Source: a virus (taxonomy: Duplodnaviria; Heunggongvirae; Uroviricota; Caudoviricetes). Taken from it: DNA of 29,051 nt. The notes under the pieces were generated by a model that saw only the letters and a list, made by a program, of their open reading frames with translations, did no database searches and was not told where the DNA came from. Shown here in pieces: positions 4,036 to 29,051 of the stretch; positions within the stretch are counted from its first letter, which is position 1; each line of letters opens with the position of its first letter. Made by a program: the position numbers and the translations under genes. The stretch is from IMG/VR virus record IMGVR_UViG_2547132278_000023; one strand, given 5' to 3'.

Positions 4036-4099
4036 ATTCACCCCACAAAAAAGCCCTCCTGAACCGGCGGGCTGTCATAACACTGTGTTACCTGGCTAA

Positions 4100-4699
4100 T
4101 CAGAATTTATAACCGACACCCACAATGAAACCGTCAGTGCGCCAGTCACCACTGCCGGAGCCTTCATAAGCAATATCAATGGCCACGGATTCGGTCGGGT
4201 TAAACTGCACGCCAGCCCCCCACGCCAGAGACGTGTTGCTGTGGCGACCGTCATCACTTCCGGTCAGCACATCATGCGTTTTCCCCGTATTGTCGGTCAC
4301 CTGCAGATAATCCCCGGAGAAAGTCGACACACGGCTGTAAGCCACACCCGCCATCGCATACGCGCTGAACCATTCATTCACGCGCACAGACGGTCCCGCC
4401 ATCACGCTGAACCAGCGGTTACGCACGGAATCCTCATGCCAGCGGGTATCGCTGTAATGCGTTTTTTGCTCATCTTCAGCGTTGGCATAACTGAATGACG
4501 TAATCAGCCCCAGCGTGTCCGTAAACTCATAACGGTATTTCACGTTAATCCCGTTCAGATTATCGCTGCCGGGAGCGTTCGTACGGGCATGAAGATACCC
4601 TGCGCTCAGTGTGGCCTGCTGCTCAGACGCCCATGCAGGCGCACCGGATACGGCCAGACAGATGGCTGCGGACAAAATGGCTGCATAAACTTTACGCAT
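4100..4699 (-). CDS. lom: Outer membrane protein Lom (Ail/Lom family beta-barrel)
   Basis: 199 aa with signal peptide MRKVYAAILSAAICLAVSGAPAWA and C-terminus ...AYEGSGSGDWRTDGFIVGVGYKF identical in character to lambda Lom. Sits directly after J as in lambda. Confidence 0.9.
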   Translation of the reverse strand: MRKVYAAILSAAICLAVSGAPAWASEQQATLSAGYLHARTNAPGSDNLNGINVKYRYEFTDTLGLITSFSYANAEDEQKTHYSDTRWHEDSVRNRWFSVMAGPSVRVNEWFSAYAMAGVAYSRVSTFSGDYLQVTDNTGKTHDVLTGSDDGRHSNTSLAWGAGVQFNPTESVAIDIAYEGSGSGDWRTDGFIVGVGYKF

Positions 4700-4720
4700 A
4701 ATTACCTCTCGCTTTTCTGC

Positions 4721-4748
4721 AATAAAAAAGGCGCCATTTCTGGCGCCC
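4721..4748 (-). terminator. Rho-independent terminator-like hairpin downstream of the original J stop (tJ-like)
   Basis: Palindrome ggcgcc-atttct-ggcgcc followed on the minus strand by a run of T (aaaaaa on plus), between the original J stop and the lom RBS. Confidence 0.45.
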
Positions 4749-4780
4749 GTATTGGGGTTATAAAATTCAGCTGATACTGA

Positions 4781-4788
4781 TGCCTGCG
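4781..4788. repeat. 8-bp target site duplication (TGCCTGCG), left copy
   Basis: Identical octamer immediately flanks both ends of the IS66-family element (second copy at 7488-7495). Confidence 0.6.
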
Positions 4789-4818
4789 GTAAGCGACTCG
4801 TCAGAACCGTATTGATAT

Positions 4819-6390: not shown

Positions 6391-6409
6391 ATCCTCACTT
6401 TACAACGGG

Positions 6410-6757
6410 TTATATGCGGATTCCAGCGCGTTCCGTTCGTTTCGGGTGCTTCCAGTTGATACCTTCAAGAAGCATGGATAACTGAGCCGGAGTAAGGTGC
6501 ACCTTGCCGTCACGGGTGACTGGCCAGACGAAGCGGCCCCGCTCCAGGCGTTTGGTGAAGAGGCACAGTCCGTCACTGTCAGCCCACAACACTTTTATCT
6601 GGTCACCCCGGCGTCCGCGGAAGATGAACAGGTGTCCGGAGAACGGGTCATCCTTCAGGACGTTCTGAACTTTTGATGCCAGGCCGTTAAAGCCATTTCG
6701 CATATCGGTGATACCTGCAACCAGCCAGATACGCGAACCTGCAGGGAGAGATATCAT
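6410..6757 (-). CDS. tnpB: IS66-family accessory protein TnpB (orf2)
   Basis: 115-aa ORF between tnpA and tnpC, typical size, sequence and position for IS66 orf2. Confidence 0.85.
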   Translation of the reverse strand: MISLPAGSRIWLVAGITDMRNGFNGLASKVQNVLKDDPFSGHLFIFRGRRGDQIKVLWADSDGLCLFTKRLERGRFVWPVTRDGKVHLTPAQLSMLLEGINWKHPKRTERAGIRI

Positions 6758-7434
6758 CAGTGGCTGCTCCCTTTTATTTCGCGGATAAGTGTCTGTAATA
6801 ACGCCGGCGTCAGTTTACCTTTAAGCCTGAGAGTTCCGGCCGGCAGAACCAGCTCACAACACAGACTGTCGGGCGGTGTATTTATCTGCTCTGGTTCCTG
6901 TGCGGGGGCCGGGATTTTATTATCCGGCTCCGGCGTTAACGTCACGGGAAGCAGTGCCGGCATATTTTTTCCGGAAGGCAGCAGGCCACCTTTCCGGTAT
7001 TGATGGCGCCAGTTGAAGAGCAGGTTATCGTTGATTCCGTTTTCCCGGGCGATCTGCGCCACACAGGCTCCGGGCTGCAGTGACTGCTCCACTAAGGCGA
7101 TTTTAAACTCATAAGGGAAGTTGGGCCGCCGGGGACGTTTTTTTACCACGGGGGCTTCGGATATAACGGTGCTTTCAGGACGTACGACTGGTACCGTGGA
7201 AAATTGTCCGTAAAGGCAGGCATCAAGTTCCTGCTCCGACATGCCTGCGGGCAAAGGCCACGAAAGGCCAGCTCTCCGAAAGCGCACGAACATACTACAA
7301 ACAGTTGATTTTGGTACACCCAGGCGACGCCCGGCCACAACCCGGGGTAAATGTTCTTCAAAGTGAAGACGTAAAGCTTCAGTGATCCAGGTCCGGTGTT
7401 TCATACGATAGTGTCCATTAAAAATGATGGACAT
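6757..7434 (-). CDS. tnpA: IS66-family accessory protein TnpA (orf1); true start probably internal to this ORF
   Basis: Contains the HTH region ...VAQIARENGINDNLLFNWRHQYRKG characteristic of IS66 orf1. Stop overlaps the tnpB start by 1 nt. The 225-aa track ORF is longer than typical orf1. Confidence 0.7.
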   Translation of the reverse strand: MSIIFNGHYRMKHRTWITEALRLHFEEHLPRVVAGRRLGVPKSTVCSMFVRFRRAGLSWPLPAGMSEQELDACLYGQFSTVPVVRPESTVISEAPVVKKRPRRPNFPYEFKIALVEQSLQPGACVAQIARENGINDNLLFNWRHQYRKGGLLPSGKNMPALLPVTLTPEPDNKIPAPAQEPEQINTPPDSLCCELVLPAGTLRLKGKLTPALLQTLIREIKGSSH

Positions 7435-7470
7435 TATTTTTGTAGAGCCGGAGGAAACAGACCAGACGGT

Positions 7471-10400
7471 TTAAATGAGCCGGTTACTGCCTGCGGTGGC
7501 TTTCTTCATCACCACAACCAGCAAATCGCTGATACTTGCTGTGGGATACCAGTCATTTACCAACCATGCTGACACCGAAAACTCCAGTGTCATGTGACCG
7601 TGACCGGCAGGCATATCAATAACACCACTGTAAATCAGCGTATTATCCAGCGCGGTACGGTTATAAATTTCAGCACCGTTTTTCCGTACTATCAGACGGC
7701 ATGAGGAGTAAATATCAGTATGCTCTTTCTCATGTTTAGCGCCGCTGAATGCCACCGCCGGAATAACAATCTGCCGGTCAAACGGCTGATCGTCATAAAC
7801 CCTGACGGTAATGGTTCCTGATGGCCACCGCTCCGGTGCACGGGAGTCCCGGGGGAAAGCTTTGCCCACTGTTTTAACGAGATCGCCTTCAATCTGGTTC
7901 GCGGACAGTTTTCCCAGAACCCGACAGTTCTCGTTAATCGTGACGTTGTTGAGCGTCCCGGAGTTCGCATTCACGTTACCGCTGATATCGGCATTTTTCG
8001 CCGTCAGCCGCCCGTCCGGTGTCAGGGAAAATGCCGGAGGATTACCGCCGCTGGTAATGGTCGGAGCCGTCAGGCGTTTCAGGAACACGTCGTTCATGAA
8101 TATCTGATCGCCCTGACCAACAAACATTGGTCTTGTGTTGCCATTAGACGGATCAATAAACGCGATACGGTTAGCGGCAACCAGGAACTGGCTCAGCTTG
8201 CCTTCTTCCGTGTCCTCCATGCTGAGGCCAATACCCGCGACATAATGTTTGCCGTCTTTGGTCTGCTCAATTTTGACAGCCCACATGGCATTCCACTTAT
8301 CGTTGGCGTCCTTCCACTCTTTCGAAAACTCCTCCAGTCTGCTGGCGTTATCCTCCGTCAGCTCGACTTTTTCCAGCAGCTCCTTGCCGAGATGGGATTC
8401 GGTTATCTTGCCTTTGAAAAAATCCAGGTAACCTTCCGCATCATCGCTCGCCCGACCGACGGCCTCCACGAATGCCGATTTGCCAACGGTGTTCACACTG
8501 CGGATATAAAAGTAATAATCATGGCCCGGTTTGATATTGATACTGGCGGCTATCCAGTACAGCCCCGTGCCAAGGTAGCGGGCTGTGGTTTCAACCTGCC
8601 TGATATCGGTAATCCGCGTTTCCGAGAACCAGAACTCAAACTGCACCGTCGGGTCATATACAGCCAGTTTCGGGACCGCCGTTATCTGAAAATAGCCCGG
8701 TGTCAGCTCAATCCGCGACGGCGCTGCCGGTGCGGCAATCCGGAACGATACCGACGCCGGATCGCCCTGCTGCCCCCACGCATTTACTGCCCGGACTGTC
8801 AGCCTGTAGTTCCCCAGCGCCAGTTGTGTGAAGCGGTAAGTGGTTTCCGTCGTCCGGGCCGTGCTGACCAGCCGCTCACTGCCGTCATCCGCTGCCACGG
8901 TCAGGCGAAGCATAAAGCTCACCCCCTTCACCACCTTCGGCGTGTCCCAGCGCGCCAGCACCTGATATTCCCCGCTGTCTGCGGTGACTTCGGCAGTCAG
9001 GTGCTGCACCGCGGGCGGCGTGACACCATTCACCGTGCCGCTCTGGTCGCCGTCAAAGTGCGCCCCGTTATCCACGATGGCTTCTTTTTCCGGTACATGC
9101 TGCACGGCGGTGATGGCATACGTGCCGTCGTCGTTCTCACGGATACTCACGCAGCGGAACAGGCGCTGGCGCAGCGTCGGCAGCTTCAGCCCCCATACGC
9201 TGTATTCAGCAACGCCGTCAGGAACACGGCTCACTTTCACCTTCACGCCGTCGGTGACGGACTGAACCTCCACGCTGACCGGATTACCACTTCCGTCAAC
9301 CAGGCTTATCAGCGTGGTACCGGAGGATGGCAGCGTGATTTCACGGTCGAGCGTCAGCGTCCGGGTCTGGCTGTTCACCGCCAGCACGCGACCACCGGTG
9401 CTGATACCGGCATAGTCATCATCGCAGATTTCAATGACATCGCCCGGTACATGGCGAAGCCCTTCAGCACCCACGCTGAAATCCACGGTCTGCGTCTCCA
9501 GCAGTTCCGTTTTAATCAGCCACAGCCCGGCGCGGTGTGCCTGCCCCCGGCTGGTACAGCCAAAGGCATCCATCTTCGTGACGTTACGACCGTAACGGGC
9601 AATGGCCTGCGTATCTTCAACAAGCTCTGTCGCCGTCTCCCAGCCGTTATCCGGGTCAATCCAGTTCACCTCAACGGCATTATGGCGGTCTTTCAGGGCG
9701 CTGAAACTGTAGCGGAACGGCGCGCCATCATCCGGCATCACCACATTACTGCGGTTATAGGCCCACACCTTATCCGACGGTCGGTCCTGCACGAACGTCA
9801 GCGTCTGCCCGTTCCATACCGGCATACAGCGCATCGCCGAGCAGAAATCACTGAGCACATCCCACGCTTTGCGCTGTGTGGTCAGGTACGCATTACAGGT
9901 GATGCGCGGCTCCGTGCCGCCAAAGCCGTCCGGCACTGACTGGTCGCAGTACTGGCCGATGACATACAGCGCCCATTTGTCCACATCCGCCGCACCAAGA
10001 CGTTTCCCCATGCCGTAGCGTGGATGGGTCAGCATATCCCACAGACACCAGGCCATGTTATTGCTGTATGCTGGCTTAAACGTTCCGTCCCAGATACCGC
10101 TGTATTGCCGAGTCTGCGGGTTATAGTTCGACGGCACCTGCAGAATACGCCCGCGCAGATGATAATTACGGCTCACCTGCTGGCTGCCGAACTGCTCCGA
10201 ATCCACCTGTACGCCGACCAGTGCCGTGTTCGGGTAGCACTGTTTCACATCGATGATTTCGGTGTATGACGACCAGAGCGTTTTGTTCTGCAGCTGGTCT
10301 GTGGTGCTGTCCGGCGTCATTCTGCGCATCCGGATATTAAACGGGCGCGGCGGCAGGTTATCCACCACCACCGAGGCCAGATACTGCGAGGTGGTTTTGC

Positions 10401-13245: not shown

Positions 13246-15821
13246 CGTCCACCTCCGGAGAACAGGCCACCATCACGCATCTGTGTCTGAATTTCATCAC
13301 GGGCACCCTTGCGGGCCATGTCATACACCGCCTTCAGAGCAGCCGGACCTATCTGCCCGTTCGTGCCGTCGTTGTTAATCACCACATGGTTATTCTGCTC
13401 AAACGTCCCGGACGCCTGCGACCGGCTGTCTGCCATGCCGCCCGGTGTACCGACATAACCGCCGGTGGCATAGCCGCGCATCAGCCGGTAAAGATTCCCC
13501 ACGCCAATCCGGCTGGTTGCCTCCTTCGTGAAGACAAACTCACCACGGTGAACAATCCCCGCTGGCTCATATTTGCCGCCGGTTCCCGTAAATCCTCCGG
13601 TTGCAAAATGGAATTTCGCCGCAGCGGCCTGAATGGCTGTACCGCCTGACGCGGATGCGCCGCCACCAACAGCTCCGCCAATGGCGCTGCCGATACTCCC
13701 GACAATCCCCACCATTGCCTGCTTAAGCAGAATTTCTGTCATCATGGACAGCACGGAACGGGTGAAGCTGCGCCAGTTCTGCTCACTGCCGGTCAGCATC
13801 GCCGCCATATTCTGTGCAATACCATCAAAGGTCTGCGTGGCTGCACTTTTTACCTGCGACATACTGTCCGTGGCGCTCTCTTCCCACTCACTCCAGCCGG
13901 ACTTCAGGCCTGCCATCCAGTTCCCGCGAAGCTGGTCTTCAGCCGCCCAGGTCTTTTTCTGCTCTGACATGACGTTATTCAGCGCCAGCGGATTATCGCC
14001 ATACTGTTCCTTCAGGCGCTGTTCCGTGGCTTCCCGTTCTGCCTGCCGGTCAGTCAGCCCCCGGCTTTTCGCATCAATGGCGGCCCGTTTTGCCCGTTGC
14101 TGCTGTGCGAATTTATCCGCCTGCTGCGCCAGCGCGTTCAGGCGCTCCTGATACGTAACCTTGTCGCCAAGTGCAGCCAGCTGGCGTTTGTACTCCAGCG
14201 TCTCATCTTTATGCGCCAGCAGGGATTTCTCCTGTGCAGACAGCTGGCGACGTTGCGCCGCCTCCTCCAGTACCGCGAACTGACTCTCCGCCTTCCACAA
14301 ATCCCGGCGCTGCTGGCTGATTTTCTCATTTGCTCCGGCATGCTTCTCCAGCGTCCGGAGTTCTGCCTGAAGCGTCAGCAGGGCAGCATGAGCACTGTCT
14401 TCCTGACGATCGCCCGCAGACACCTTCACGCCGGACTGTTTCGGCTTTTTCAGCGTCGCTTCATAATCCTTTTTCGCCGCCGCCATCAGCGTGTTGTAAT
14501 CCGCCTGCAGGATTTTCCCGTCTTTCAGTGCCTTGTTCAGTTCTTCCTGACGGGCGGTATATTTCTCCAGCGGCGTCTGCAGCCGTTCGTAAGCCTTCTG
14601 CGCCTCTTCGGTATATTTCAGCCGTGATGCCTCAGACTCGGCCCAGTCCTTTGCTGCCATCTCTCTGGCCTTTTCAAGATCGGCCTGCAACGTGGCGGCT
14701 GAAAGTCCAAGTTGCGCATTCGCTCTGTCCTCCCATGCTCCCCGGAGATTGGCACGAAATGCTGAGGTTTTACCGCGCCGGTGGCTCCGGCTCTGATACC
14801 ACTGCCATTTTTTGTCCGCCTCATCAAAAGCCTTTTCTGCTTTCTCCAGCATTCCCTGGGCAGTGTCCGGGCGACCAATATCCAGCACCGAATCCCACAT
14901 GGATTTGAATGCCCGTGCTGTCCTGTCTGCCCAGGTCTCCAGCGTGCCCATGTTCTCTTTCAGGCGGCGGGTCTGGTCATCAAACCCTTTCGTTGCGGCC
15001 TCGTTCGCCGCCTGCAATGCCCCGGCTTCATCTCCGGAACGCTGCAACTGAGCAACATACGCAATCTGCTCCGCCGTCACGTTATGGAACTGACGTGCCA
15101 TCGCTGTCAGTCCCGACGTCGGGTCTGTGGTCAGCTTCCCGAAGGCTTCAGCGACCTTGTCCACCTCCACGCCGGATGCAGAGGAGAAACGCGCCACACT
15201 CTGGCTGATCGCCTCAAACTGCTCACCACCACGCACACCGGCATTCACCAGCGCCGTCAGTGACTCGCTGGTCTGGTTAAACGTCAGCCCTGCCGCCTGC
15301 CCGGCTCTGGACAGGACCAGCATACGATCTGCCGTCAGTCCCGCCTGATTGCCGGAAAGGACCAGCGTTTTGTTGAAATCGGACAGGGTTGAGTTGCCCT
15401 GATACCAGGCATACGCCAGCGCACCGGTCGCCACCGCCAGCGAGGTGGCCCCCACCATCGGCAGGGTGATCGCACCGGCAAGCCCCCTGAACATGGGGAT
15501 CATCCCGCCGAAGGAGTCCTTAACCTGACCCCCCTGTTGCAGCAGGATCAGCCACGGACTTTGCCCGCCTGCAAGCTGCGTGGCCACGTCGGTGAACTGT
15601 GCAGGCAGCATACGCATGGCGGCTTTATACTGTCCGACGGAAATCCCCGCTTTCTGTGCAGCCAGCGCCTGCCGGTTCATTGACTGTTCAACGACTGCCG
15701 CTGTTTTTTTCGCATCACTTTCCGTATCGGAAAAATGACGCCTGACTCTGGCCATCTGCTCGTCAAATCTGGCCGCATCCAGACTCAAATCAACGACCAG
15801 ATCGCCTACCGGTTCAGCCAT
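13242..15821 (-). CDS. H: Tail tape measure protein H
   Basis: 859 aa, long coiled-coil-rich protein with Gly-rich C-terminal region, in lambda position. Lambda H is 853 aa. Confidence 0.9.
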   Translation of the reverse strand: MAEPVGDLVVDLSLDAARFDEQMARVRRHFSDTESDAKKTAAVVEQSMNRQALAAQKAGISVGQYKAAMRMLPAQFTDVATQLAGGQSPWLILLQQGGQVKDSFGGMIPMFRGLAGAITLPMVGATSLAVATGALAYAWYQGNSTLSDFNKTLVLSGNQAGLTADRMLVLSRAGQAAGLTFNQTSESLTALVNAGVRGGEQFEAISQSVARFSSASGVEVDKVAEAFGKLTTDPTSGLTAMARQFHNVTAEQIAYVAQLQRSGDEAGALQAANEAATKGFDDQTRRLKENMGTLETWADRTARAFKSMWDSVLDIGRPDTAQGMLEKAEKAFDEADKKWQWYQSRSHRRGKTSAFRANLRGAWEDRANAQLGLSAATLQADLEKAREMAAKDWAESEASRLKYTEEAQKAYERLQTPLEKYTARQEELNKALKDGKILQADYNTLMAAAKKDYEATLKKPKQSGVKVSAGDRQEDSAHAALLTLQAELRTLEKHAGANEKISQQRRDLWKAESQFAVLEEAAQRRQLSAQEKSLLAHKDETLEYKRQLAALGDKVTYQERLNALAQQADKFAQQQRAKRAAIDAKSRGLTDRQAEREATEQRLKEQYGDNPLALNNVMSEQKKTWAAEDQLRGNWMAGLKSGWSEWEESATDSMSQVKSAATQTFDGIAQNMAAMLTGSEQNWRSFTRSVLSMMTEILLKQAMVGIVGSIGSAIGGAVGGGASASGGTAIQAAAAKFHFATGGFTGTGGKYEPAGIVHRGEFVFTKEATSRIGVGNLYRLMRGYATGGYVGTPGGMADSRSQASGTFEQNNHVVINNDGTNGQIGPAALKAVYDMARKGARDEIQTQMRDGGLFSGGGR

Positions 15822-16248
15822 ACCGGACTCCTCCTGCGATCCCTTCTGATACTGTCATCAGCATTACGTCATCCTCCGTCATGTCCGCCACATCCGGGGA
15901 AGCGGGGATAACTTCATTCCCGTCCGGGCCAAAGCGGACGCCTCCGGCAAGCCCTGCCGCTTTCTGCATCAGCACATCATCTTCAGGCTCTTCGTCAGCC
16001 TCGCGCCGGTTCAGCAGACTGAAATCCAGCGGATGCATATCCGGATCGCTGAAAAACAGGCTGAGTACGGTGTACGTCAGCCCGGAAAAGTGCATATCCA
16101 GCAGAACATCATGAAAATAATGGGTACTGTAAAAGCGGTGCCAGTCGGCATACTCCGTGGATGACATCCCGGCAAGCATGGCGCGCCAGTCGGGTCGCCC
16201 CATCTCACGCGCCAGTTTCAGGGCAAAACTCAGCTCACCGTCGAACAC
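15814..16248 (-). CDS. T: T segment of tail assembly chaperone GT, expressed only as a G-T fusion by -1 ribosomal frameshift
   Basis: 144-aa ORF in the -1 frame relative to G, overlapping the G 3' end. The track's first codon is GTG, immediately after the slippery heptamer. Confidence 0.8.
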   Translation of the reverse strand: MFDGELSFALKLAREMGRPDWRAMLAGMSSTEYADWHRFYSTHYFHDVLLDMHFSGLTYTVLSLFFSDPDMHPLDFSLLNRREADEEPEDDVLMQKAAGLAGGVRFGPDGNEVIPASPDVADMTEDDVMLMTVSEGIAGGVRYG

Positions 16249-16652
16249 TTTCCCGCAGAAACAGGCTCTGCTGGCCCGGCGTCATCTGCCTGTTCAGGTG
16301 CATCATTCACAACAAACTCAGACATACCGGACAGACGCATTACCACATTTTCAGCCTGAGCAATTGCCTCTGTGGGCCAGGTGGTAAGCACTTCCTGCTC
16401 AATTTGTTTAACGGCTTCATTCATGGACGGCATCTTTGTCTTCTGCGGATGGCTATGCCACAGGGACATCGCCACCAGAAAAGCACCGGTTCTGACGAGA
16501 TCTTCCACGCTCACCTGTCGATTGAGACTGGATCCCGCCTGTTCTGCCTGTCGTTTCAGCAGGGCGAGATGCTCAATTCGCTGCAGGGCTGACAGTTCAG
16601 AAAGCGTGACGCTCACACCGTTATATTCAAATGATTCGGTTTTCAGGAACAT
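16230..16652 (-). CDS. G: Tail assembly chaperone G
   Basis: 140 aa, MFLKTESFEYNGVSVTLSELSALQRIEHLALLKRQAEQ... ends ...PVSAGKCSTVS as lambda G. Confidence 0.9.
   Translation of the reverse strand: MFLKTESFEYNGVSVTLSELSALQRIEHLALLKRQAEQAGSSLNRQVSVEDLVRTGAFLVAMSLWHSHPQKTKMPSMNEAVKQIEQEVLTTWPTEAIAQAENVVMRLSGMSEFVVNDAPEQADDAGPAEPVSAGKCSTVS
16248..16254 (-). other. Programmed -1 frameshift slippery heptamer G GGA AAG (G to GT)
   Basis: Minus-strand sequence ...gcg gga aag tgt tcg... (G frame: AGKCS) shifts to ...ggg aaa gtg ttc gac ggt gag... (T frame: GKVFDGELSFALKL). Same heptamer and position as lambda G/GT. Confidence 0.7.
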
Positions 16653-16667
16653 CGCTGACTCTCCGGA

Positions 16668-17408
16668 TTAACTGTCGGTGACGGTGATTTCTGCAACCAC
16701 AGCAAGTTCACCATTACCGGATACAACCGGAATGTTGACCTTGCCTGCAGCAACACCTTTCACGGTGATGGTCATACCACTGACCGACACGGTGACTTTT
16801 GTTTTATCCGCAGACACCGCACGGAAGCTCTTGTCGGTTGCGCCTTCCGGCTGGAATGCCACGGTCAGCGTGGTGCTCTGCCCTTTCACCACCGAAGTGC
16901 TGGCAGGCGTCACGGTCATGCCGGTTGCCGCTGTTACCGTGCTGCGATCTTCTGCCATCGACGGACGTCCCACGTTGGTGACTTTCACCGTGCGGGTGAT
17001 CACTTCCTTCGCCGTCACCGCCTTACCGATACTGCTGACCCAGCCGCGGAACACATCGACCGTGCCGTTCGGGAAGCGGATTTTATAGGCACGGGTATCC
17101 CCTTCATTAAACCACGCCAGCAGCGCCTGCTGCCCCTGCTCTCCGGGCATCCACGCCAGCGTGAAGCTGGTATCTCCGGCAGATTTCTGCCCCTGCCCGG
17201 TCGCAGTCCAGTCCGCATCTTCATCATCGAGATAGCTGTCGTCATAGGACTCAGCGGTCAGTTCGCCGGGCGTCAGGTCTTTAACTTTAGCCAGACGCGA
17301 CCAGTCAACGTCTGAAAGCGGGTTCGCATAAGGGTCACCGTTCCCCTTATAAACCCACAGTGTGGTCCCGGCCCCTTTCACCGGCATTACTGGATTTGGT
17401 ACAGGCAT
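16668..17408 (-). CDS. V: Major tail tube protein V with C-terminal Ig-like domain
   Basis: Matches lambda V from [22 protein letters not shown]... The track ORF has a 10-codon upstream extension; start set at the conserved Met. Confidence 0.9.
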
Positions 17409-17415
17409 ATCGTCC

Positions 17416-17811
17416 TCACATTTCATAGGTAATGACATAAGTCAGATCGGCTGAACTCCACAGGCCCGCATCATCGTCGCGCCGGTAGTCATAGCCACTG
17501 GCCACCATACTGGTGATCAAATCTGACAGTGCCGGGACATCGCTCATCACCGGATAAATCCGGGACTCCATCCACGAATCCAGCTCTGAATCCGGCACCT
17601 GAGCAGGCAGGAAAACTTCAATATGCAGCTCCGCCTGCCAGGTATCACTGTCCAGCTCTTCGCCCGTGTATTCAGCGCCGGTGAGATAAACGGCAATTGC
17701 CGGAAAATCCGCCTCATCAAAAACAGCGGGGCGACCATCAAAAAGCGTCGCCCCGGTGTCATGCTTCTCCAGTGCATCCAGTACGGCTGCACGGAGTTCA
17801 GTATGTTTCAT
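17416..17811 (-). CDS. U: Tail terminator protein U
   Basis: Matches lambda U from [22 protein letters not shown]... to ...LTYVITYEM. The track ORF has a 20-codon upstream extension. Confidence 0.9.
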
Positions 17812-18386
17812 CGCTTTATTACCATTCTCAGTTGATGCTGCAGCGCATAGCCCAGCTCTTTCGGAAGACATTCACGCCGTATCCGTTCAATATTCTGTTT
17901 AAACGCCGTGGTAAGCGGCACCGCCATCGGGATTTTCACCACATCAATGGGGTAACGGTTTTTCCCGGCCACACGCTGCATGACATGCCACCGGCCATTT
18001 TTCAGTTGCTGAATAAACGCGCCGGGAATACGACGGTTTCCCACCACAAGCACGCTGCCGCCACCTTTCAGGGATGAACGCTGCCCCTTTTTACGACGTC
18101 TGCGGCGGGAAAGGACAACCCGCGCGTTACCCAGCTTGATTACGGGCAAATCCCCCCGGTTAACCCTGATTCTGGCCTGCGGATTTTTGACCGTGGCCCT
18201 TTTCAGCCTGGCCCTTTCCTTTACCAGTTTCCGGCGTACCTTTGTCTCACGGGCAACCTGTGACGCAGACTGCGATATCGCGGATGACGCAACGCGGTTA
18301 ATGGTCATTGCGGCGGCACCAGGCACCGCCGTTTTGCTGATACGGCTGAGGTTTTCAACGGCCTGCTCAAGACCTTTTATGGCCAT
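17808..18386 (-). CDS. Z: Tail completion protein Z
   Basis: 192 aa, MAIKGLEQAVENLSRISKTAVPGAA..., lambda Z length and order. Confidence 0.9.
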   Translation of the reverse strand: MAIKGLEQAVENLSRISKTAVPGAAAMTINRVASSAISQSASQVARETKVRRKLVKERARLKRATVKNPQARIRVNRGDLPVIKLGNARVVLSRRRRRKKGQRSSLKGGGSVLVVGNRRIPGAFIQQLKNGRWHVMQRVAGKNRYPIDVVKIPMAVPLTTAFKQNIERIRRECLPKELGYALQHQLRMVIKR

Positions 18387-18397
18387 ACATCCCCCTT

Positions 18398-18751
18398 TCA
18401 GCGGCGACGGTTAACGGCAGGCGGCACGCCACGCCCAAGCCAGAGATGACAGCTTCCGCCATCATCCGGCGAAATCCGGTCCACCCAGAAGTTTTCCTCG
18501 CCGATGGTCAGTGTGTCTCCACGCCGCAGCTGCCGCACATCATCAGTCCGGACAAACAGGGACGGGCTGGAGCCTTCAACGCGCACCCCCTGTCCGGCAT
18601 AGCTGATATTTTCAGGGTCATCAAAAACACCACGTATCACAGCACCGGACAGCTCACCGGATGTCATGGTGGCTGACGTTCCCATGTACCCGCGTATCGT
18701 TTCATCGGCGCGGGCAATGGCAGCATCGAACAGGTTATCGGAATCAGCCAC
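18398..18751 (-). CDS. FII: Head-tail joining protein FII
   Basis: 117 aa, MADSDNLFDAAIARADETIRGYMG..., lambda FII length and order. Confidence 0.9.
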   Translation of the reverse strand: MADSDNLFDAAIARADETIRGYMGTSATMTSGELSGAVIRGVFDDPENISYAGQGVRVEGSSPSLFVRTDDVRQLRRGDTLTIGEENFWVDRISPDDGGSCHLWLGRGVPPAVNRRR

Positions 18752-18762
18752 AGCGCCTCCCG

Positions 18763-19158
18763 TTATTGCATTCTGGCCAGGCCATGTTCTGTCATTTCGG
18801 CTGCCACACCGGCAGAGACACGAAACGCCGTTCCCGGCAGCACAAATGCCACAGGCTCATCCCGCGTGGCGTGAAGTGCATCAGTATGCAGCGTCACCAG
18901 TGCCACGACCGTGACCAGAGCAGCCGTATCAATCACGGTATCCGGCTGCGCTGATACCACCTCATTTTCATGTCCGGTCAGCGCATTTTCCGGGCTGACA
19001 GATGTGTCCTGACCGGCAGCGTCATCCGTGTCATCAAGCTCCTCTTCCAGCTCTGCCACACGGAGCACCAGTTCTTCTTTCGTCCCCGTCAGGCTGACAT
19101 CACGGTTCAGTTGCTCACCCAGCACCTGAAGACGGGCAATCAGTTCATCTTTCGTCAT
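18763..19158 (-). CDS. FI: DNA packaging / head completion protein FI
   Basis: Matches lambda FI from MTKDELIARLQVLGEQLNRDVSLTGTKEEL... The track ORF has a 13-codon upstream extension through the E-FI hairpin. Confidence 0.85.
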   Translation of the reverse strand: MTKDELIARLQVLGEQLNRDVSLTGTKEELVLRVAELEEELDDTDDAAGQDTSVSPENALTGHENEVVSAQPDTVIDTAALVTVVALVTLHTDALHATRDEPVAFVLPGTAFRVSAGVAAEMTEHGLARMQ

Positions 19159-19179
19159 AGACTCCTCCACAGAGAGAAA

Positions 19180-19197
19180 ATGGCCCCGAAGGGCCAT
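19180..19197 (-). promoter_or_regulatory. Perfect hairpin in the E-FI intergenic region
   Basis: atggcccc-gaag-ggccat palindrome between the E stop and the FI RBS (cctccac on plus strand). Coordinates +/-1. Confidence 0.3.
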
Positions 19198-19199
19198 GA

Positions 19200-20225
19200 T
19201 TACGCCAGTTGTACGGACACGAACGCATCAGGGTCAGCCAGCAGCATCAGCGGTGCTGACTGAATCATGGTGAACTCACGCGCCGGATCGCCGGTGGTCA
19301 CCCAGTTTTTCGGGTAGCGGGCAGAGGCGTTAATACCTTCGCGCTGTGCGTCCGCATCCTGAATGCAGCCATAGGTGCGCAGACCGCGTGCCTGAGTGTT
19401 CCCCAGCACCATCGTGTTGTCCGGAAGGAAGTTCTTTTTGACGTCGTTTTCCACGTACTGTCCGGAATACACGACGATCGCCGTATCGCCATACATCCCC
19501 TTATAGGACACCGCTTCGCCCAGGTCTTTTACCGCTGTCTCCAGCTCGGAATTAGAGCCGCGACGGGTATCCAGCTTCTCCTTGACGGCTTTGAAGGAAC
19601 GGAACAGCGCCCAGCCTTTCGGATCAAACACGATGATATTCACCACTCCGCTGGCGTTCAGCGCATAGGCTTCGATATCGTCGGTCGGGTCATACGTGGA
19701 CTTGTCACGCTTGCTCCACTCCGTACCACCGGACTGTGTGATGTTGTTCGCCGCACTGCGGCCCATATCCACCTCAACCGGATCGAAGGCTTCACCGGTC
19801 ATGGTGTATTTGCCCTTAAGCACAGCAGAAACTGCCTGCATCTCTTCGACCTGAGCAATGGCCAGCTCTTCGTCTCGCATGTTCTGCATGATGATGCGAC
19901 GGCGGCGGTAAGCCGGGTCCGCCAGATTCTGCGGATCTTCATCCGGCAGGCGACGCAGGGTCATCTGCGGATTCACCTCATGCTTCGGCTTGACATATCC
20001 CGGTGTAAATTCAGAGGTGGAGCCGCCACGGGAGCGGATAACCTCACCGGAAACAATCGGCGAAACGTACAGCGCCATGTTTACCAGTCCCGGAATTTGT
20101 GAGAGATAGACTTTCTCCGTGGTGAAGGGATAGCTCTCACGGAAAAAGAGACGCAGAAACAGCGGATCAAACTTAAATTTCTTCTCATTTGCCGCCAGCA
20201 GCTGGGCGGTTGTGTACATCGACAT
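19200..20225 (-). CDS. E: Major capsid protein E
   Basis: Matches lambda E (341 aa) from MSMYTTAQLLAANEKKFKFDPLFLRLFF... to ...DPDAFVSVQLA. Most of the gene was hand-translated codon by codon as a check and is in frame. The track ORF begins at an upstream GTG. Confidence 0.9.
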   Translation of the reverse strand: MSMYTTAQLLAANEKKFKFDPLFLRLFFRESYPFTTEKVYLSQIPGLVNMALYVSPIVSGEVIRSRGGSTSEFTPGYVKPKHEVNPQMTLRRLPDEDPQNLADPAYRRRRIIMQNMRDEELAIAQVEEMQAVSAVLKGKYTMTGEAFDPVEVDMGRSAANNITQSGGTEWSKRDKSTYDPTDDIEAYALNASGVVNIIVFDPKGWALFRSFKAVKEKLDTRRGSNSELETAVKDLGEAVSYKGMYGDTAIVVYSGQYVENDVKKNFLPDNTMVLGNTQARGLRTYGCIQDADAQREGINASARYPKNWVTTGDPAREFTMIQSAPLMLLADPDAFVSVQLA

Positions 20226-20245
20226 AAAAAAATCCCGTAAAAAAA

Positions 20246-20259
20246 GCCGCACAGGCGGC
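20246..20259 (-). promoter_or_regulatory. GC-rich hairpin followed by a T-run in the D-E intergenic region (terminator/attenuator-like)
   Basis: Minus strand reads gccgcctgtgcggc then ttttttt, then the E RBS and ATG. Coordinates +/-1. Confidence 0.35.
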
Positions 20260-20280
20260 CTTTAGTGATGAAGGGTAAGG

Positions 20281-20613
20281 TTAAACGATGCTGATTGCCG
20301 TTCCGGCAAACGCGGTCCGTTTTTTCGTCTCGTCGCTGGCAGCCTCCGGCCAGAGCACATCCTCATAACGGAACGTGCCGGACTTGTAGAACGTCAGCGT
20401 GGTGCTGGTCTGGTCAGCATCAACCGCCAGAATGCCAACGGCAGTACCGTCGGTGGTGCCATCCCACGCAACCAGCTTACGGGTGGAGGTGTCCAGCATC
20501 AGCGGGGTCATTGCAGGCGCTTTCGCACTCAATCCGCCGGGCGCGGTTGCCGTATGTGCCGGGTCACTGTTGCCCAGCGGCTGGTAATGGGTAAAGGTTT
20601 CTTTGCTCGTCAT
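20281..20613 (-). CDS. D: Head decoration protein D
   Basis: Matches lambda D from [33 protein letters not shown]... to ...[12 protein letters not shown]. Start and stop codons verified by hand against the track. Confidence 0.9.
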
Positions 20614-20622
20614 AAACATCCC

Positions 20623-21228
20623 TTACACTGGTGTGTTCAGCAAATCGTTAACGGCATCAGATGCCGGGTTACCTGTAGCCAGCGGTGCCGGTGCCCCCTG
20701 CATCAGACGATCCAGCGCAGTGTCACTGCGCGCCTGTGCACTCTGTGGTGCAGCTGCCAGAATGCGGCGGGCCGTTTCCACGGTCATACCGGGGGTTTCT
20801 GCCAGCACGCGGGCCTGTTCTTCGCGTCCGTGAGCCTCCTCACAGTTGAGGATCCCCATAATGCGGCTGTTTTCTGCCGCAACCGCAGCGGTGATCTGCG
20901 CGTTCACGTCCGGCTGCGCCGCGCTGGCGTTTTCGCCCTCCGTCGCTGGCACCACGTCAGTAACGTCAGTCTGCGAAGCAGTGGCTGAAACAGTTGTTGA
21001 TTGAGTCTCTTTGGTCATTCGCCCTCCTGAGAGACGGGATTTACGCGCATCCAGTGCATCACGCATGACGGTGATCGCATCGGTGCTGTTAACAAGTTCA
21101 TCAGCCAGTCCGGCATCAATGGCCTCCTGACCGCTGTACACTGCAGCCTCGGTATCCAGCACAGCCTGCACAGACAGGCCGGTATATGCCGACACCTTCT
21201 GCGCAAACATCTGGCGGGTTGCGTCCAT
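20623..21228 (-). CDS. Nu3: Scaffolding protein Nu3, nested in-frame in the 3' part of C (201 aa)
   Basis: An in-frame ATG (MDATRQMFAQKV...) lies exactly 201 codons before the shared stop, the size I recall for lambda Nu3. Internal initiation is inferred from lambda. Confidence 0.6.
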   Translation of the reverse strand: MDATRQMFAQKVSAYTGLSVQAVLDTEAAVYSGQEAIDAGLADELVNSTDAITVMRDALDARKSRLSGGRMTKETQSTTVSATASQTDVTDVVPATEGENASAAQPDVNAQITAAVAAENSRIMGILNCEEAHGREEQARVLAETPGMTVETARRILAAAPQSAQARSDTALDRLMQGAPAPLATGNPASDAVNDLLNTPV

Positions 21229-21922
21229 CCGGGACTGCAGTGTCTCCCGGACGTCATCCGGAAGATGGCTGTAGGGATTGCCATCCACCTTATGGCTGCC
21301 GCTGTAAATCAGCGTGATTTCCACACCCTGTTTCTCCAGGGCAGCACCGTAATTACTGTGAGCCATCATGACGCCGATGGAGCCTGTCCGGGCGGTCTGC
21401 GTGACCAGACGCCGGGAGGCGGCACTGGCAAGCAGCTGACCTGCACTGCAGTTCATGTCGTTGGCCAGCGCCCATACCGGTTTTATGTCTCGCACACGGG
21501 CGATGATGTCAGCGCAGTCAAATGCCCCCGCCACCATTCCGCCTGGCGTGTCCATATCGAGCAGAATGCCGTCCACCATCGGGTCGCTGGCAGCCTGTTG
21601 CAGACGGGCGATAATGCCGTTGTAACCGGTCATCCCCGAGTACGGCTGCAGCGCCCGCGTCCGGCTGACCAGCGTGCCGGACACCGGCAGCACGGCGATG
21701 CCGTTCATGACCTGATAACTGCGGGCCTGTCGTGGTCCGTCATCATCACCGGATAATGCCAGCGTCGCGAGTGCCTCCTGGGCAGTCAGGCTGTCGCCGG
21801 ACACCGCATCCGTCAGGCGGCTGATCCCAAGCTGGCCTGCAAGCGCACAAAAGAAAACCCGCGCATAGGCGGGTTCAAGCATCAGCGGCTCATTAAAGGC
21901 CATGCTGGCAATATGCGGGAGA

Positions 21923-21942
<20 letters not shown>
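20623..21942 (-). CDS. C: Head maturation protease / scaffold C (439 aa), apparent GTG start
   Basis: Matches lambda C from (V/M)TAELRNLPHIASMAFNEPLMLEPAYARVFF... A GTG codon preceded by gaggaggagaa lies at the lambda start position. 20-nt overlap with the B 3' end, as in lambda. Confidence 0.85.
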
Positions 21943-25623
<3,681 letters not shown>

Positions 25624-25649
<26 letters not shown>

Positions 25650-26169
25650 TCAGCAACCCCGGTATCAGTTCATCCAGCGCGGCTGCTTTGTTCATGGCTT
25701 TGATGATATCCCGTTTCAGGAAATCAACATGTCGGTTTTCCAGTTCCGGAAAACGCCGCTGCACCGACAGGGGGATCCCGTCGAGAATACTGGCAATTTC
25801 ACCTGCGATCCGCGACAACACGAAAGTACAGAATGCGGTTTCCACCACTTCAGCGGAGTCTCTGGCATTCTTCAGTTCCTGTGCGTCGGCCTGCGCACGC
25901 GTAAGTCGATGGCGTTCGTACTCAATAGTCCCTGGCTGGAGATCTGCCTCGCTGGCCTGCCGCAGTTCTTCAACCTCCCGGCGCAGCTTTTCGTTCTCAA
26001 TTTCAGCATCCCTTTCGGCATACCATTTTATGACGGCGGCAGAGTCATAAAGCACCTCATTACCCTTGCCACCGCCTCGCAGAACGGGCATTCCCTGTTC
26101 CTGCCAGTTCTGAATGGTACGGATACTCGCACCGAAAATGTCAGCCAGCTGCTTTTTGTTGACTTCCAT
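25624..26169 (-). CDS. Nu1: Terminase small subunit Nu1
   Basis: 181 aa, MEVNKKQLADIFGASIRTIQNWQEQGMPVLRGGGKGNEVLYDSAAVIKWYAERD... (winged-HTH N-terminus), lambda Nu1. 3' end overlaps the A start. Confidence 0.9.
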
Positions 26170-26360
26170 TGTTCATTCCACGGACAAAAACAGAGAAAGG
26201 AAACGACAGAGGCCAAAAAGCTCGCTTTCAGCACCTGTCGTTTCCTTTCTTTTCAGGGGGTATTTTAAATAAAAACATTAAGTTACGACGAAGAAGAACG
26301 GAAACACCTTAAACCGGAAAATTTTCATAAATAGCGAAAACCCGCGAGGTCGCCGCCCCG
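26170..26360 (-). promoter_or_regulatory. cos packaging site: cosB (R1, R2, R3 terminase-binding repeats) and cosN with the 12-nt cohesive-end sequence
   Basis: Reverse complement of 26347-26358 is GGGCGGCGACCT, followed by CGCGGGTTTTCGCTATTTATGAAAATTTTCCGG, the lambda left end as recalled. R-site-like repeats: gaaaggaaacgacag (about 26195-26209), ctgtcgtttcctttc (about 26235-26249), cgaagaagaacggaaacacc (about 26289-26308). Lambda right-end-like sequence (cgtaacctgtcgg) continues from 26359. Confidence 0.8.
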
Positions 26361-26393
26361 TAACCTGTCGGATCGCCGGAAAGGACCCGCAAA

Positions 26394-26410
26394 ATGATAA
26401 TAATTATCAT
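26394..26410. promoter_or_regulatory. 17-bp perfect palindrome ATGATAATAATTATCAT on the right-end side of cosN
   Basis: Self-complementary sequence about 35 bp from cosN. Function unknown; possibly part of the cosQ-side packaging region or an operator. Confidence 0.3.
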
Positions 26411-26557
26411 CTGCATGTCACAACGTGCATCTACGCCATCAAACCACGTCAAATAATCAATTATGACGCAGGTATCGTATTAATTGATCTGCATCAACTT
26501 AACGTAAAAACAACTTCAGACAATACAAATCAGTGACACTGAATACAGGGCAACCTC

Positions 26558-26791
26558 ATGTCAACGAAGAACAGAACCCGCAGAACAACAACCCGCAACA
26601 TCCGCTTTCCTAACCAAATGATTGAACAAATTAACATCGCTCTTGATCAAAAAGGGTCCGGGAATTTCTCAGCCTGGGTCATTGAAGCCTGCCGCCGGAG
26701 ACTGTGCTCAGAAAAAAGAGTTTCTCCTGAAGCAAACAAAGAAAAGAGTGACATTACTGAATTGCTCAGAAAACAGATCAGACCAGATTGA
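26558..26791 (+). CDS. Small hypothetical protein, probably ribbon-helix-helix DNA-binding fold (YlcI/DUF3950-like, tentative)
   Basis: 77-aa ORF with a basic N-terminus (RTRRTTTRNIRF) then a strand-helix-turn-helix pattern (NIRFPNQMIEQINIALDQKGSGNFSAWVIEACRRRL). ATG preceded by aggg. AT-rich codon usage unlike the structural genes. Confidence 0.5.
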   Translation: MSTKNRTRRTTTRNIRFPNQMIEQINIALDQKGSGNFSAWVIEACRRRLCSEKRVSPEANKEKSDITELLRKQIRPD

Positions 26792-26849
26792 AGCAATTTA
26801 GATAATCGTGCAGACTACGCCCCCCTCATATCACATGGAAGGTTTATCT

Positions 26850-27260
26850 ATGGATCAGGTAGTCATTTTTAAACAAATATTTGATAAAGTTCGAAACGAT
26901 TTAAACTATCAATGGTTTTATTCTGAGCTAAAACGTCATAATGTCTCACATTACATTTACTATTTAGCCACAGAGAATGTTCATATTGTATTAAAAAATG
27001 ATAATACAGTGTTATTAAAGGGCCTAAAAAACATTGTGTCTGTCAAATTTTCAAAGGATAGGCATCTTATAGAAACGACCTCTAATAAGCTGAAATCCAG
27101 AGAGATCACATTTCAGGAATACAGAAGAAACCTTGCTAAAGCAGGAGTTTTTCGGTGGGTTACAAATATCCACGAACAAAAAAGATATTACTATGCCTTT
27201 GATAATTCATTACTCTTTACTGAAAACATACAGAGCACATCACAAATGTTTCCACACTAA
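26850..27260 (+). CDS. Hypothetical protein, YbcV/DUF1398-like (tentative; prophage 'putative envelope protein' family)
   Basis: The track ORF is 26808-27260. Start set at the internal ATG ([11 protein letters not shown]...) with GGAAGG about 9 nt upstream, giving 136 aa. AT-rich, 58 bp after the previous ORF, same strand. Confidence 0.5.
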
Positions 27261-27562
27261 ACCATAACGTCCGGTTTCTTCTACCCCTGCACCGGACTGG
27301 CTGACATGAAGAGCAACCCCGCGTTCAGTTGACGCGTTAATAACCCGGTGTGCATCGTTTTTGATTATTCCCGCACACTCACGCAGAAGGAATTCCCCGT
27401 CGGGCTACGGTCATGGTTAATGCGGGAATACGGCGACGATACAGCGCATGATGTGTCAGGCTTGAATACCTTTATCCGTTAAAAGGGATATCAGTTAAGT
27501 TATCCCGTGCAGGGTATAAGCCATTATCAAGCCCCCCGTAGATAGGCTTTGTAATGACATCT

Positions 27563-28087
27563 TCAATTAATCAGCAGTTCAGGCTGTGTCACCTGCAAGA
27601 TGTATTCATGCTCGACAGCCAGGACACGCTTCTCTTTCTTCCGTTCGTTCATTAACCGACTGCCGATCGTACCTTTCAGCTTTGAGCGTGTTTCTTTGAT
27701 GGCGTAGCGGTGCTGCATTTCTTCGCCAATTGCCATGCGGCGGCTCAGTTGTTCTGCCATCCAGTTGAATGCTGCGATATAGCTCTCCTTGATTGCCGCA
27801 GCAGCTTTCCCGGTGAACCCCATCACAACCATGATCCAGCCATCTTTCGTCAGGCTGTACATCGGGCGAACCTTGCCCTGCTCATCGATATAATCAGCCG
27901 ACGCAAAATTGCGTTGGCTAAACTCACGCGAGCAATCAGCCTTAACCTGCTCGATTTTCCTGAGAACATCACCGTGTCGCTTGCCGAAGTACTTGGCAAT
28001 TTTTCTGGATGTGGTAACGACCTCTCCGTTTTTGGCTTGCACCATTTCTCGGAAGTCGAAGGCTGGAATAACTGAATGATTATTCAT
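27563..28087 (-). CDS. rha: Rha-family phage regulatory protein
   Basis: 174 aa from internal Met of the track ORF. N-terminal region MNNHSVIPAFDFREMVQAKNGEVVTTSRKIAKYFGKRHGDVLRKIEQ is the Rha-family signature I recognise. Confidence 0.7.
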   Translation of the reverse strand: MNNHSVIPAFDFREMVQAKNGEVVTTSRKIAKYFGKRHGDVLRKIEQVKADCSREFSQRNFASADYIDEQGKVRPMYSLTKDGWIMVVMGFTGKAAAAIKESYIAAFNWMAEQLSRRMAIGEEMQHRYAIKETRSKLKGTIGSRLMNERKKEKRVLAVEHEYILQVTQPELLIN

Positions 28088-28429
28088 AGCGTCTTTACCT
28101 TTTAGAAAGTGAGCCTGTCTCACAGAAAAGCCGCCCGAGAGAGGTCGCCACCTATAACGGCATTTCTCAGGCTCGCTTACTGAAAGGCTCTCGTTAATAT
28201 GCGCGTGAGATGCGCTGTGAAATTCAGATATAAAAAGCCCCGCGAATGCGAGGCTAAATCCTGGTATTTGTAATGAACTGGCTCTTATCTCAACGCAGCC
28301 CCTTACTGCGCGCCAGATGCTCAATATCAAGCATCAGCAATGAGATGTTTAATCTGGATTTACTCCAGAAGTGATCACCACCCTGTCTACAGAGCCAGAT
28401 GTGAAGGATGATGAGTAAAATTATCGCTA

Positions 28430-28799
28430 TCATCGAAGGCATTGCGTCCTAATGTATTCCTGAAGCGTTCTCAGTGCTGTTTGGTCGCGGATAATTCCGT
28501 CCCGGATATCGAGAACGTTTCGTCCAGCAACTGGAGAGAGTTCGACGGTGGCATCATTGCCCATGCCGGAGGCGCTGGAGGTTTCGGCAGAGGATGGCAC
28601 AGGGCATTTTCCTTTGACGAGCACCCTGCCACCATTATCAAGCTTCCGCAGAAGAGCATCATTTTCAGCTTTCGCATCAGCTAACTCCTTCGTGTATTTT
28701 GCATCGAGCGCAGCAACATCACGCTGACGCATCTGCATGTCAGTAATTGCCGCGTTCGCCAGCTTCAGTTCTCTGACATTTTTGTCGCGCTGGGCTTTG
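28430..28799 (-). pseudogene. Rz: Rz (inner-membrane spanin) gene lacking its 5' end; interrupted by an IS21-family insertion
   Basis: The reading frame encodes ...[49 protein letters not shown]... matching lambda Rz from about residue 33 onward. Upstream of about 28800 the sequence changes to IS sequence with an in-frame stop; no signal-anchor coding region present. Confidence 0.65.
28471..28677 (-). CDS. Rz1: Rz1 (outer-membrane lipoprotein spanin), embedded in Rz in the +1 frame
   Basis: 68-aa [24 protein letters not shown]... with lipobox (MVAGC) followed by a proline-rich segment PKPPAPPAW, like lambda Rz1. Located entirely inside the Rz remnant. Confidence 0.7.

Positions 28800-29051
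<252 letters not shown>

Follow-up and report, generated by a model that had tools for sequence, protein, structure and literature searches.

The right ends of phage lambda, phage 434 and the Escherichia coli K-12 prophages DLP12 and Qin are the closest described relatives of the locus discussed here, two adjacent small genes, ynfO and ydfO, in a 29,051-nucleotide stretch of DNA from a virus of the Caudoviricetes (IMG/VR record IMGVR_UViG_2547132278_000023; this whole stretch is called "the window" below). In lambda (NC_001416) one protein of the DUF3950 family and one of the DUF1398 family are encoded on the same strand relative to the late operon, and at the same position between Rz and cos, as in the window. 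The lambda DUF1398 protein is encoded inside lambdap78 and is 77% identical to that of the window; the DUF3950 protein is a 64 amino acid (aa) open reading frame (ORF) at 48109-48303 on the complementary strand (2710-2904, - strand, of our locus L003) that is missing from the RefSeq feature table, and the phage 434 record annotates its homologue. Within its first 49 residues this lambda ORF has a single difference (D30E) from the window's YnfO. Unlike in the window, a 613-bp insert with the oppositely oriented lambdap79 gene (ybcW in DLP12) lies between the two genes in lambda and DLP12, the DUF3950 protein of these two has another C-terminal tail and is 64 aa long, and bor lies downstream; the DLP12 order, ylcI-ybcW-ybcV-borD, is that of lambda. 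In phage 434 the DUF3950 gene adjoins cos and is followed by bor, and the DUF1398 gene is cleanly missing. Finally, K-12 Qin has the same order (nohA, which is a Nu1 homologue, then ynfO and ydfO), strands and position as the window, and its joint, like that of the window, is without lambdap79/ybcW.

The late region of the window is lambda-like and is encoded by the - strand, with terminase genes A at 23724-25649 and Nu1 at 25624-26169. ynfO (26558-26791, + strand; a 77-aa YlcI/YnfO or DUF3950 protein with an ATG start) and ydfO (26850-27260, + strand; a 136-aa DUF1398 protein) lie just inside cos on the strand opposite the late operon and are separated by 58 bp; an alternative GTG start for ydfO at 26808 would give a protein of 150 aa. 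The GC fraction is 0.32 in ydfO and 0.40-0.44 in ynfO, while the structural genes of the window have values of 0.52-0.60. These coordinates and compositions bear out what an earlier note on this DNA had said of the pair's position between cos and the lysis genes, its strand, its AT-richness and its spacing. On balance we lean towards the following reading: the locus is a Qin-type allele of the lambdoid lysis-cos accessory region, and it contains two independent modules, a ribbon-helix-helix-like (RHH-like) YnfO and a standalone YdfO, which abut here because the lambdap79/ybcW segment is missing.

Identity of the two genes

The two genes are already catalogued prophage genes, ynfO and ydfO, with homologues in phage lambda. 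The ynfO product matches Pfam PF13132 (DUF3950) over residues 21-50 with 74.8 bits (cut-off 25, E = 4.9e-21), NCBIfam NF041551 (YlcI_YnfO_N) with 35.7 bits (cut-off 30) and phrog_949 at E = 7.9e-34. The ydfO product matches Pfam PF07166 (DUF1398) over the whole profile (positions 1-119 of 119) with 157.4 bits (cut-off 22, E = 2e-46), and it aligns with the nuclear magnetic resonance (NMR) structure of YdfO, PDB 2HH8, at E = 2.1e-84 with 130 of the 135 aligned residues identical (~96%). The two Pfam scores, both far above what chance would give, put on a firm footing the YlcI/DUF3950 and YbcV/DUF1398 assignments that had previously been offered only tentatively. Several E. coli chromosomes in RefSeq contain the 1.4-kb region with 100% identity, and their annotation names the genes "ynfO: YlcI/YnfO family protein" and "DUF1398 domain-containing protein"; ynfO is the same gene as K-12 b4533, and ydfO corresponds to K-12 b1549. 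The literature that we searched assigns no function to either family, and an assignment for either gene would fill a small, long-standing gap in the best-studied phage and bacterium.

A short Qin-type joint stands in for the lambdap79 segment

The relationship to lambda was established by BLAST against the whole lambda genome as follows: The window from 14836 to 26358 aligns to lambda 11527-1, so that the lambda left end falls at 26358 and its right end at 26359, which places the cohesive-end site, cosN, at 26347-26358 (12-nucleotide cohesive end aggtcgccgccc) at the junction of the two lambda ends. Beyond this point two blocks match lambda: 26359-26720 corresponds to lambda 48502-48141 at 95% identity and 26775-27448 to lambda 47527-46868 at 80%. 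The sole locus-level difference from lambda is thus the 54 bp between these two blocks (26721-26774, + strand), which encode ynfO codons 55-72, have no lambda match and stand in place of the 613-bp lambdap79/ybcW segment. To the left of this joint the N-terminal module of ynfO (codons 1-54, 26558-26720, + strand) is common to lambda, 434 and DLP12 and has 95-97% DNA identity to lambda and 434; to the right, the segment 3' of ydfO at 27261-27448 is shared with lambda, where it is the lambdap78-bor interval, and with 434, and it forms the right edge of the shared module. The idea that these genes are the main non-lambda cargo of the window therefore does not hold, since lambda encodes both proteins (in lambdap78 and the unannotated ORF) in DNA that is 95% and 80% identical.

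The differences from K-12 Qin, in which ynfO is 234 and ydfO 411 nucleotides long, are smaller still. The intergenic gap is 57 bp in Qin and 58 bp in the window, which has an extra C in a run of C's; a PdhR-type site upstream of ydfO (below) reads GATCAGACC in the window and GGTCAGACC in K-12; and the downstream gene is of the Rha family in the window whereas Qin has gnsB/ynfN/cspI. According to a 2026 preprint, lambdap79 triggers the "Vulcan" NADase defence system, and the lambda mutants that escape it have lost lambdap79, probably through recombination with Qin. Such a loss would yield a joint of the kind present in the window. What looked like a two-gene cassette is the standard lambda-like right-end accessory region in its Qin form, which is a clarification and not a discovery, and as the adjacency of ynfO and ydfO stems from the absence of lambdap79 the two genes should be studied separately.

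ynfO and ydfO occur independently of one another

Is the association of the two genes more than a result of this joint? In 5426 complete E. coli genomes the conserved DUF3950 segment is present at 8360 places and DUF1398-like DNA at 8876. The Qin-type joint was found at 2342 places in 2192 of these genomes (~40%), and it accounts for 2342 of the 8360 DUF3950 copies. Among viral contigs, searches with three protein variants yielded 175 distinct DUF3950 loci with enough sequence downstream: 69 of the Qin type, 3 of the lambda type and 103 without a DUF1398 gene within 3 kb, proportions that are biased by the way in which the loci were picked. Many of the 103 have either a PerC-family gene or nothing before Rz. 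In loci L195 and L209, for example, a PerC-family activator (PF06069, 3.8e-44) is encoded in the late orientation (- strand) at +306 to +620 after the DUF3950 start.

The converse scan was for DUF1398 loci in one genome per species. All but one (L113) of the loci of the lambda/Qin/DLP12 kind that cover the upstream region have a DUF3950 gene there, and none of the Enterobacteriaceae DUF1398 loci at 50% identity or less has one within 6 kb. The latter group includes the YcgX-type copies of Escherichia and Shigella and copies in Citrobacter, Klebsiella, Kluyvera, Raoultella, Pseudocitrobacter and Salmonella diarizonae, and they lie in unrelated chromosomal contexts, for example amyA-yedD-yedE(F) or a GGDEF/carbonic anhydrase neighbourhood. 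The co-occurrence of ynfO and ydfO is confined to this phage lineage, and it is obligate in neither direction.

These observations bear directly on the suggestion that the pair is a small regulator or antitoxin with its effector, for which a lack of pairing outside the phage lineage had been named as refuting; on that count the pair hypothesis fails. In its most explicit form the locus would be a type II toxin-antitoxin system, with YdfO as the toxin, YnfO as an RHH antitoxin that neutralises it by means of its variable tail, and both genes in a single autoregulated operon. DUF3950 is present alone in 434 and in the 103 sampled loci above, and in many chromosomes DUF1398 is kept without it, as with the YcgX-type copies; a gene of opposite orientation lies between the two in lambda and DLP12; the tail that would do the neutralising is in the window a product of the recombination joint, with its last five codons derived from the DUF1398 leader; and neither a toxin family nor a credible entry of the defence-system database PADLOC (below) was matched. 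The independent occurrence of the genes and the conserved leader that DUF1398 has of its own leave the toxin-antitoxin reading poorly supported, and we consider it very unlikely.

Lists of homologues of these two families require some care. What look like homologues of DUF1398 and DUF3950 in Pseudomonas, Kitasatospora, Brevibacillus, Staphylococcus and other taxa are lambda DNA contamination: their contigs are ~3.5 kb or ~48.5 kb long, and they match the window at 77% identity, just as lambda does. They include our loci L089-L129 and proteins P0016-P0036, P0144-P0155 and others, among them sequences from Flavobacterium, an Arcanobacterium "plasmid" of 3566 bp and S. aureus. The ~3.5-kb contigs fit what we take to be the Nanopore control amplicon of the lambda right end. 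Error-ridden reads of this kind inflate the protein clusters and create false fusions such as P0001, a 233-aa "fusion" of both domains that proved to be a gene-calling artefact that depends on translating a TGA as Trp and on the loss of one C. Real DUF1398 occurrences are in Enterobacteriaceae only. The inflation of homologue lists by lambda control DNA is one of two traps in the record of these genes; the other, a mix-up of names, is described below.

YnfO: selection, context and probable fold

ynfO is a genuine gene under purifying selection. Over codons 1-50 in 57 distinct sequences pN/pS is 0.15 at a pS of 0.43, and the ynfO frame is open in 52 of the 57 variants. Of the five remaining frames, four are interrupted in every variant and one is open in only 24. 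These values matter because the ORF lies 200 bp from cosN inside a very conserved intergenic block, breaks at cos promote recombination nearby, and the ORF is unannotated in the lambda reference record, so that its conservation might instead reflect constraints on cos or packaging DNA or homogenisation by cos-stimulated recombination, and no protein need be made. The codon-level pattern, together with the existence of curated Pfam and NCBIfam families and with loci (next paragraph) in which homology starts at the ATG, makes us give almost no credence to this explanation.

Nu1 is missing upstream at 40 of 165 sampled DUF3950 loci. In the three of these that were examined (L151, L152 and L195) the DUF3950 gene lies 42 bp from the start of an HNH endonuclease gene, which is followed by an unrelated small terminase gene (TerS; Terminase_2) and then by a gene for a 553-aa putative large terminase (TerL). 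This HNH-TerS-TerL arrangement appears to be an HK97-like packaging module and not lambda Nu1/A. Homology to ynfO begins at the DUF3950 ATG in these HNH-type loci and the DNA upstream is unrelated, which indicates that ynfO is a resident of the boundary between lysis and packaging genes and not a part of lambda cos. The C-terminal tails of YnfO variants diverge after about residue 50, and the window's ynfO takes its last five codons and its stop from the DUF1398 leader; only the N-terminal domain of the protein thus appears to matter.

That domain was proposed earlier to be RHH-like on the basis of its residue pattern. The predicted topology and several weak hits fit this proposal, and no match is statistically significant. 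The AlphaFold2 (AF2) monomer model has a mean predicted local distance difference test score (pLDDT) of 70.6, with 83-86 in the core, and has residues 1-18 as an extended, Arg-rich segment, a helix at 19-32, a G-S-G-N turn and a second helix at 37-54; the beta-strand of an RHH fold cannot form in such a monomer model. Searching with the model in Foldseek gave no significant structural match, and its top hits were TCP DNA-binding domains, which we take to be RHH-like. A profile alignment of YnfO with Arc by hhalign (the Arc sequence was checked against the PDB) places T-R-N-I-R-F-P in register with Q-F-N-L-R-W-P at E = 0.02 and 2% probability, and the alignment with Mnt has E = 0.23. A PHROG HicB-like profile (E = 0.007) is the only profile hint of an RHH domain; no Pfam RHH family matched YnfO at E <= 0.1, BLASTP gave no RHH match, and sequence and profile searches of the PDB with YnfO returned nothing useful.

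Like Arc and Mnt, the RHH repressors of the P22 immI region, YnfO is a small phage protein encoded within the late region, and when the sequences are read by eye all three have an N-x-R-x-P strand motif, a Gly between the helices at the turn and a Ser at the start of helix B in identical spacing. YnfO differs from Arc and Mnt in having no adjacent antirepressor operon or recognisable operator, and no sequence or structure score between them is significant. Judging from the model and these motifs, an Arc/Mnt-like RHH DNA-binding domain is the probable fold, statistically not established. The first ~50 residues of YnfO would then form a dimer with, in order, an Arg-rich arm, a beta-strand (N-I-R-F-P), a helix, the G-S-G-N turn and a second helix, and YnfO, whose gene lies at the lysis/packaging boundary and diverges from the packaging genes, would probably be a small transcriptional regulator that is expressed while late transcription is off. 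A bolder extension is that DUF3950 is an overlooked core lambdoid regulator, an RHH repressor acting in lysogens or early in infection to control transcription at this boundary or of the adjacent accessory gene. The family is found at the lysis/packaging boundary of at least two unrelated types of packaging module, and we regard this extension as possible but doubtful.

YdfO: leader, protein and published data

The DUF1398 module is more than the ydfO coding sequence. It includes a conserved ~75-bp leader that begins exactly at the GGTCAGACC palindrome (GATCAGACC in the window). The palindrome-containing site in the window, AACAGATCAGACCAGAT at 26772-26788, marks the start of the module and corresponds to the PdhR sites of K-12 with one mismatch in the left half-site; PdhR binds in vitro (genomic SELEX, gSELEX) upstream of both ydfO and ybcV in K-12, and ybcV mRNA is 10-fold lower in a K-12 pdhR mutant (PMC7660256). 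A candidate promoter element within the leader, the -10-like hexamer GATAAT at 26801-26806 (+ strand), is conserved in the DUF1398 leaders of both Qin and lambda types and was not called by a consensus promoter scan. A ribosome-binding site, GGAAGG, at 26837-26842 (+ strand), 7 nucleotides before the ydfO ATG, is invariant in the leader alignment. From these elements we infer that ydfO has a promoter of its own.

The protein is a standalone domain. An exhaustive search of representative sequences gave only 193 DUF1398 clusters, all with a length of 220 aa or less and hence no case of the domain fused to another. Its conserved positions (L, T, G, Y, N, A, W and Y) are either hydrophobic or aromatic or else Gly, Thr or Asn, and are not typical catalytic residues. 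The two halves of the family profile align with each other by hhalign at E = 0.002 and a probability of 13%, which is only suggestive of an internal duplication. A search of the PDB with the DUF1398 profile found 2HH8 as its sole match. Searches of PADLOC-DB v2 gave no match to YnfO and a weak Csx23 match to YdfO (E = 0.009, 14 bits).

Database labels describe the DUF1398 protein as a component of the virion or envelope: PHROG 413 is placed in the "head and packaging" category, lambdap78 is a "head protein" in RefSeq, and "envelope protein" is used elsewhere. These labels go back to automatic predictions. The gene is antisense to the late operon, and knock-down of lambdap78 by CRISPR interference (CRISPRi) has been reported to be non-essential for lambda, as are all lambda recombinants that carry the ybcV::kan-marked DLP12 region reported to be active phages. 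By inspection the YdfO sequence has no long hydrophobic stretch, which leaves both the "envelope protein" and the "head protein" labels without support; 2HH8 is a soluble monomer; and paralogues occur as chromosomal orphans outside prophages. A role in the virion or envelope is, in our judgement, highly improbable.

ydfO has instead the properties of an accessory gene: it is optional, its occupancy of the slot is patchy, its GC fraction is 0.32 compared with 0.55, and it is dispensable for growth of lambda. Of the alternatives put forward for the locus, a "moron", which would be expressed in the lysogen, is the one that best fits the DUF1398 gene; the ydfO and ybcV transcripts of K-12 are measurable and regulated, which bears on such expression only indirectly. 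A known gene comparable in these respects is bor, which occupies the same Rz-cos slot, is likewise optional and patchy, and is on the same anti-late strand as ydfO; Bor differs from the DUF1398 protein in being a lipoprotein of the outer membrane that is known to confer serum resistance, and DUF1398 proteins have no signal peptide. Homologues of perC/pch share the optional slot and differ from DUF1398 in encoding transcriptional activators in the late orientation.

Such company raises the question of whether the DUF1398 protein, with or without YnfO, is made by the prophage as an anti-phage or counter-defence protein, that is, a superinfection exclusion factor or a defence inhibitor. The slot is an accessory-gene hotspot that also holds bor, perC and lambdap79, the last of these is what Vulcan senses and what escapers lose through Qin recombination (above), and ydfO itself is AT-rich, antisense to the late operon and dispensable for lytic growth. 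The PADLOC result includes no credible match, no such phenotype is reported in the literature searched, and the chromosomal orphan paralogues lie in contexts (amyA-yedDEF and GGDEF/carbonic anhydrase) that are not those of defence genes. We find this explanation unlikely, if less so than a toxin-antitoxin role.

Our preferred reading of the second module is that YdfO would be a single-domain cytoplasmic alpha/beta protein whose gene has its own leader, including the palindrome bound by PdhR in K-12, and that it is most likely an accessory protein that binds a host component and is neither an enzyme nor a toxin. ydfO mRNA has been reported to rise 117-fold after treatment with an imidazolium ionic liquid. 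We infer, as the weakest part of this account, that YdfO may be a stress- or metabolism-responsive accessory protein that acts by binding and not by catalysis. With respect to the host, one listing has ydfO as "essential only by TraDIS", although deletion of the entire Qin prophage is possible.

Several points weigh against the reading of the locus as two independent modules with these roles, in addition to the sampling bias of the viral contigs given above. The 58-bp gap contains no terminator-like structure, so that in the window ynfO and ydfO could be co-transcribed and a regulator-cargo relationship is possible there. Structure prediction, which had been suggested as a check on both proteins, modelled the YnfO core well without a significant fold match and modelled YdfO poorly (pLDDT 52), so that it provides no fold-based clue to the function of YdfO. 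No ynfO or ydfO phenotype was found in the literature searched, and the sole published YdfO "phenotype" is most likely a confusion of the names YdfO and YfdO. This is an oxidative-stress phenotype attributed to YdfO (PMC4077768, citing Wang et al. 2010, PMC3105296), and we have set it aside because the cited paper names YfdO: it reports on YfdO of prophage CPS-53, and "ydfO" is nowhere in its main text. A second published observation, the upregulation of ybcV and ybcW upon expression of T4 MotB, was considered as evidence for silencing by H-NS and rejected as ambiguous, since that experiment also switched on lambda-DE3 late genes.

The cos-proximal DNA

The DNA between cosN and ynfO contains several conserved elements. 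A putative cosQ equivalent, the heptamer ggacccg at 26382-26388, was placed by transferring the position annotated for phage 434 cosQ (24-30 nucleotides from the right end). About 4 bases away is a perfect 8-1-8 palindrome of 17 bp, ATGATAATaATTATCAT, at 26394-26410, which occurs once where 0.04 occurrences are expected. A promoter-like site, GTGACA-16-TATCAT (10 of 12 matches), at 26421-26394 on the - strand has its -10 hexamer overlapping this palindrome and is directed through cos towards Nu1. The palindrome is nearly invariant in loci of the lambda-cos type and is missing from the HNH-type DUF3950 loci that were checked, so it travels with cos and not with ynfO. An inverted repeat at 26456-26488 and other intergenic blocks are likewise conserved only with lambda-type cos. 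The palindrome and the inverted repeat were both considered as a YnfO operator and rejected on account of their absence from the HNH-type loci checked; with the conserved repeats going only with lambda-type cos, no operator can be assigned to YnfO.

On the cassette itself, the consensus promoter scan called no + strand promoter, and a terminator scan found none between or after ynfO and ydfO. RNA folding of the spacer (z = -0.9) and the 3' region (z = -0.6) is unremarkable, and an Rfam search of the cassette and its surroundings gave nothing relevant.

Other features of the window

Downstream of the shared module, 27449-28652 has no lambda match, and the truly non-lambda DNA near the cassette is here, in the form of a Rha-family gene, a 50-aa ORF and a divergent Rz. 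The Rha-family (antirepressor-like) gene (27563-28090, - strand) and the conserved 50-aa ORF (28290-28442, - strand; phrog_11822) occupy the position of bor in lambda; both have the late-operon orientation and converge on ydfO. A small ORF at 27348-27482 (+ strand), 44 aa here and 54 aa elsewhere, recurs in 50 sampled loci; it had no family match in profile searches and lies in the segment conserved with lambda and 434. At the other end of the window the left part (1-7923) is patchily lambda-like, and its segments 1-2419 and 4561-7923 have no lambda match, so that more non-lambda DNA lies there than in the cos-proximal cassette.

The Rz spanin gene, in the 28430-29051 region, is missing its 5' end. 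Homology to lambda Rz extends as far as 28800, and from 28801 onwards there is an IS21-family element, with the C-terminus of IstB encoded at 28866-29051 (- strand). With Rz 5'-truncated next to this element, the prophage is probably lysis-defective.

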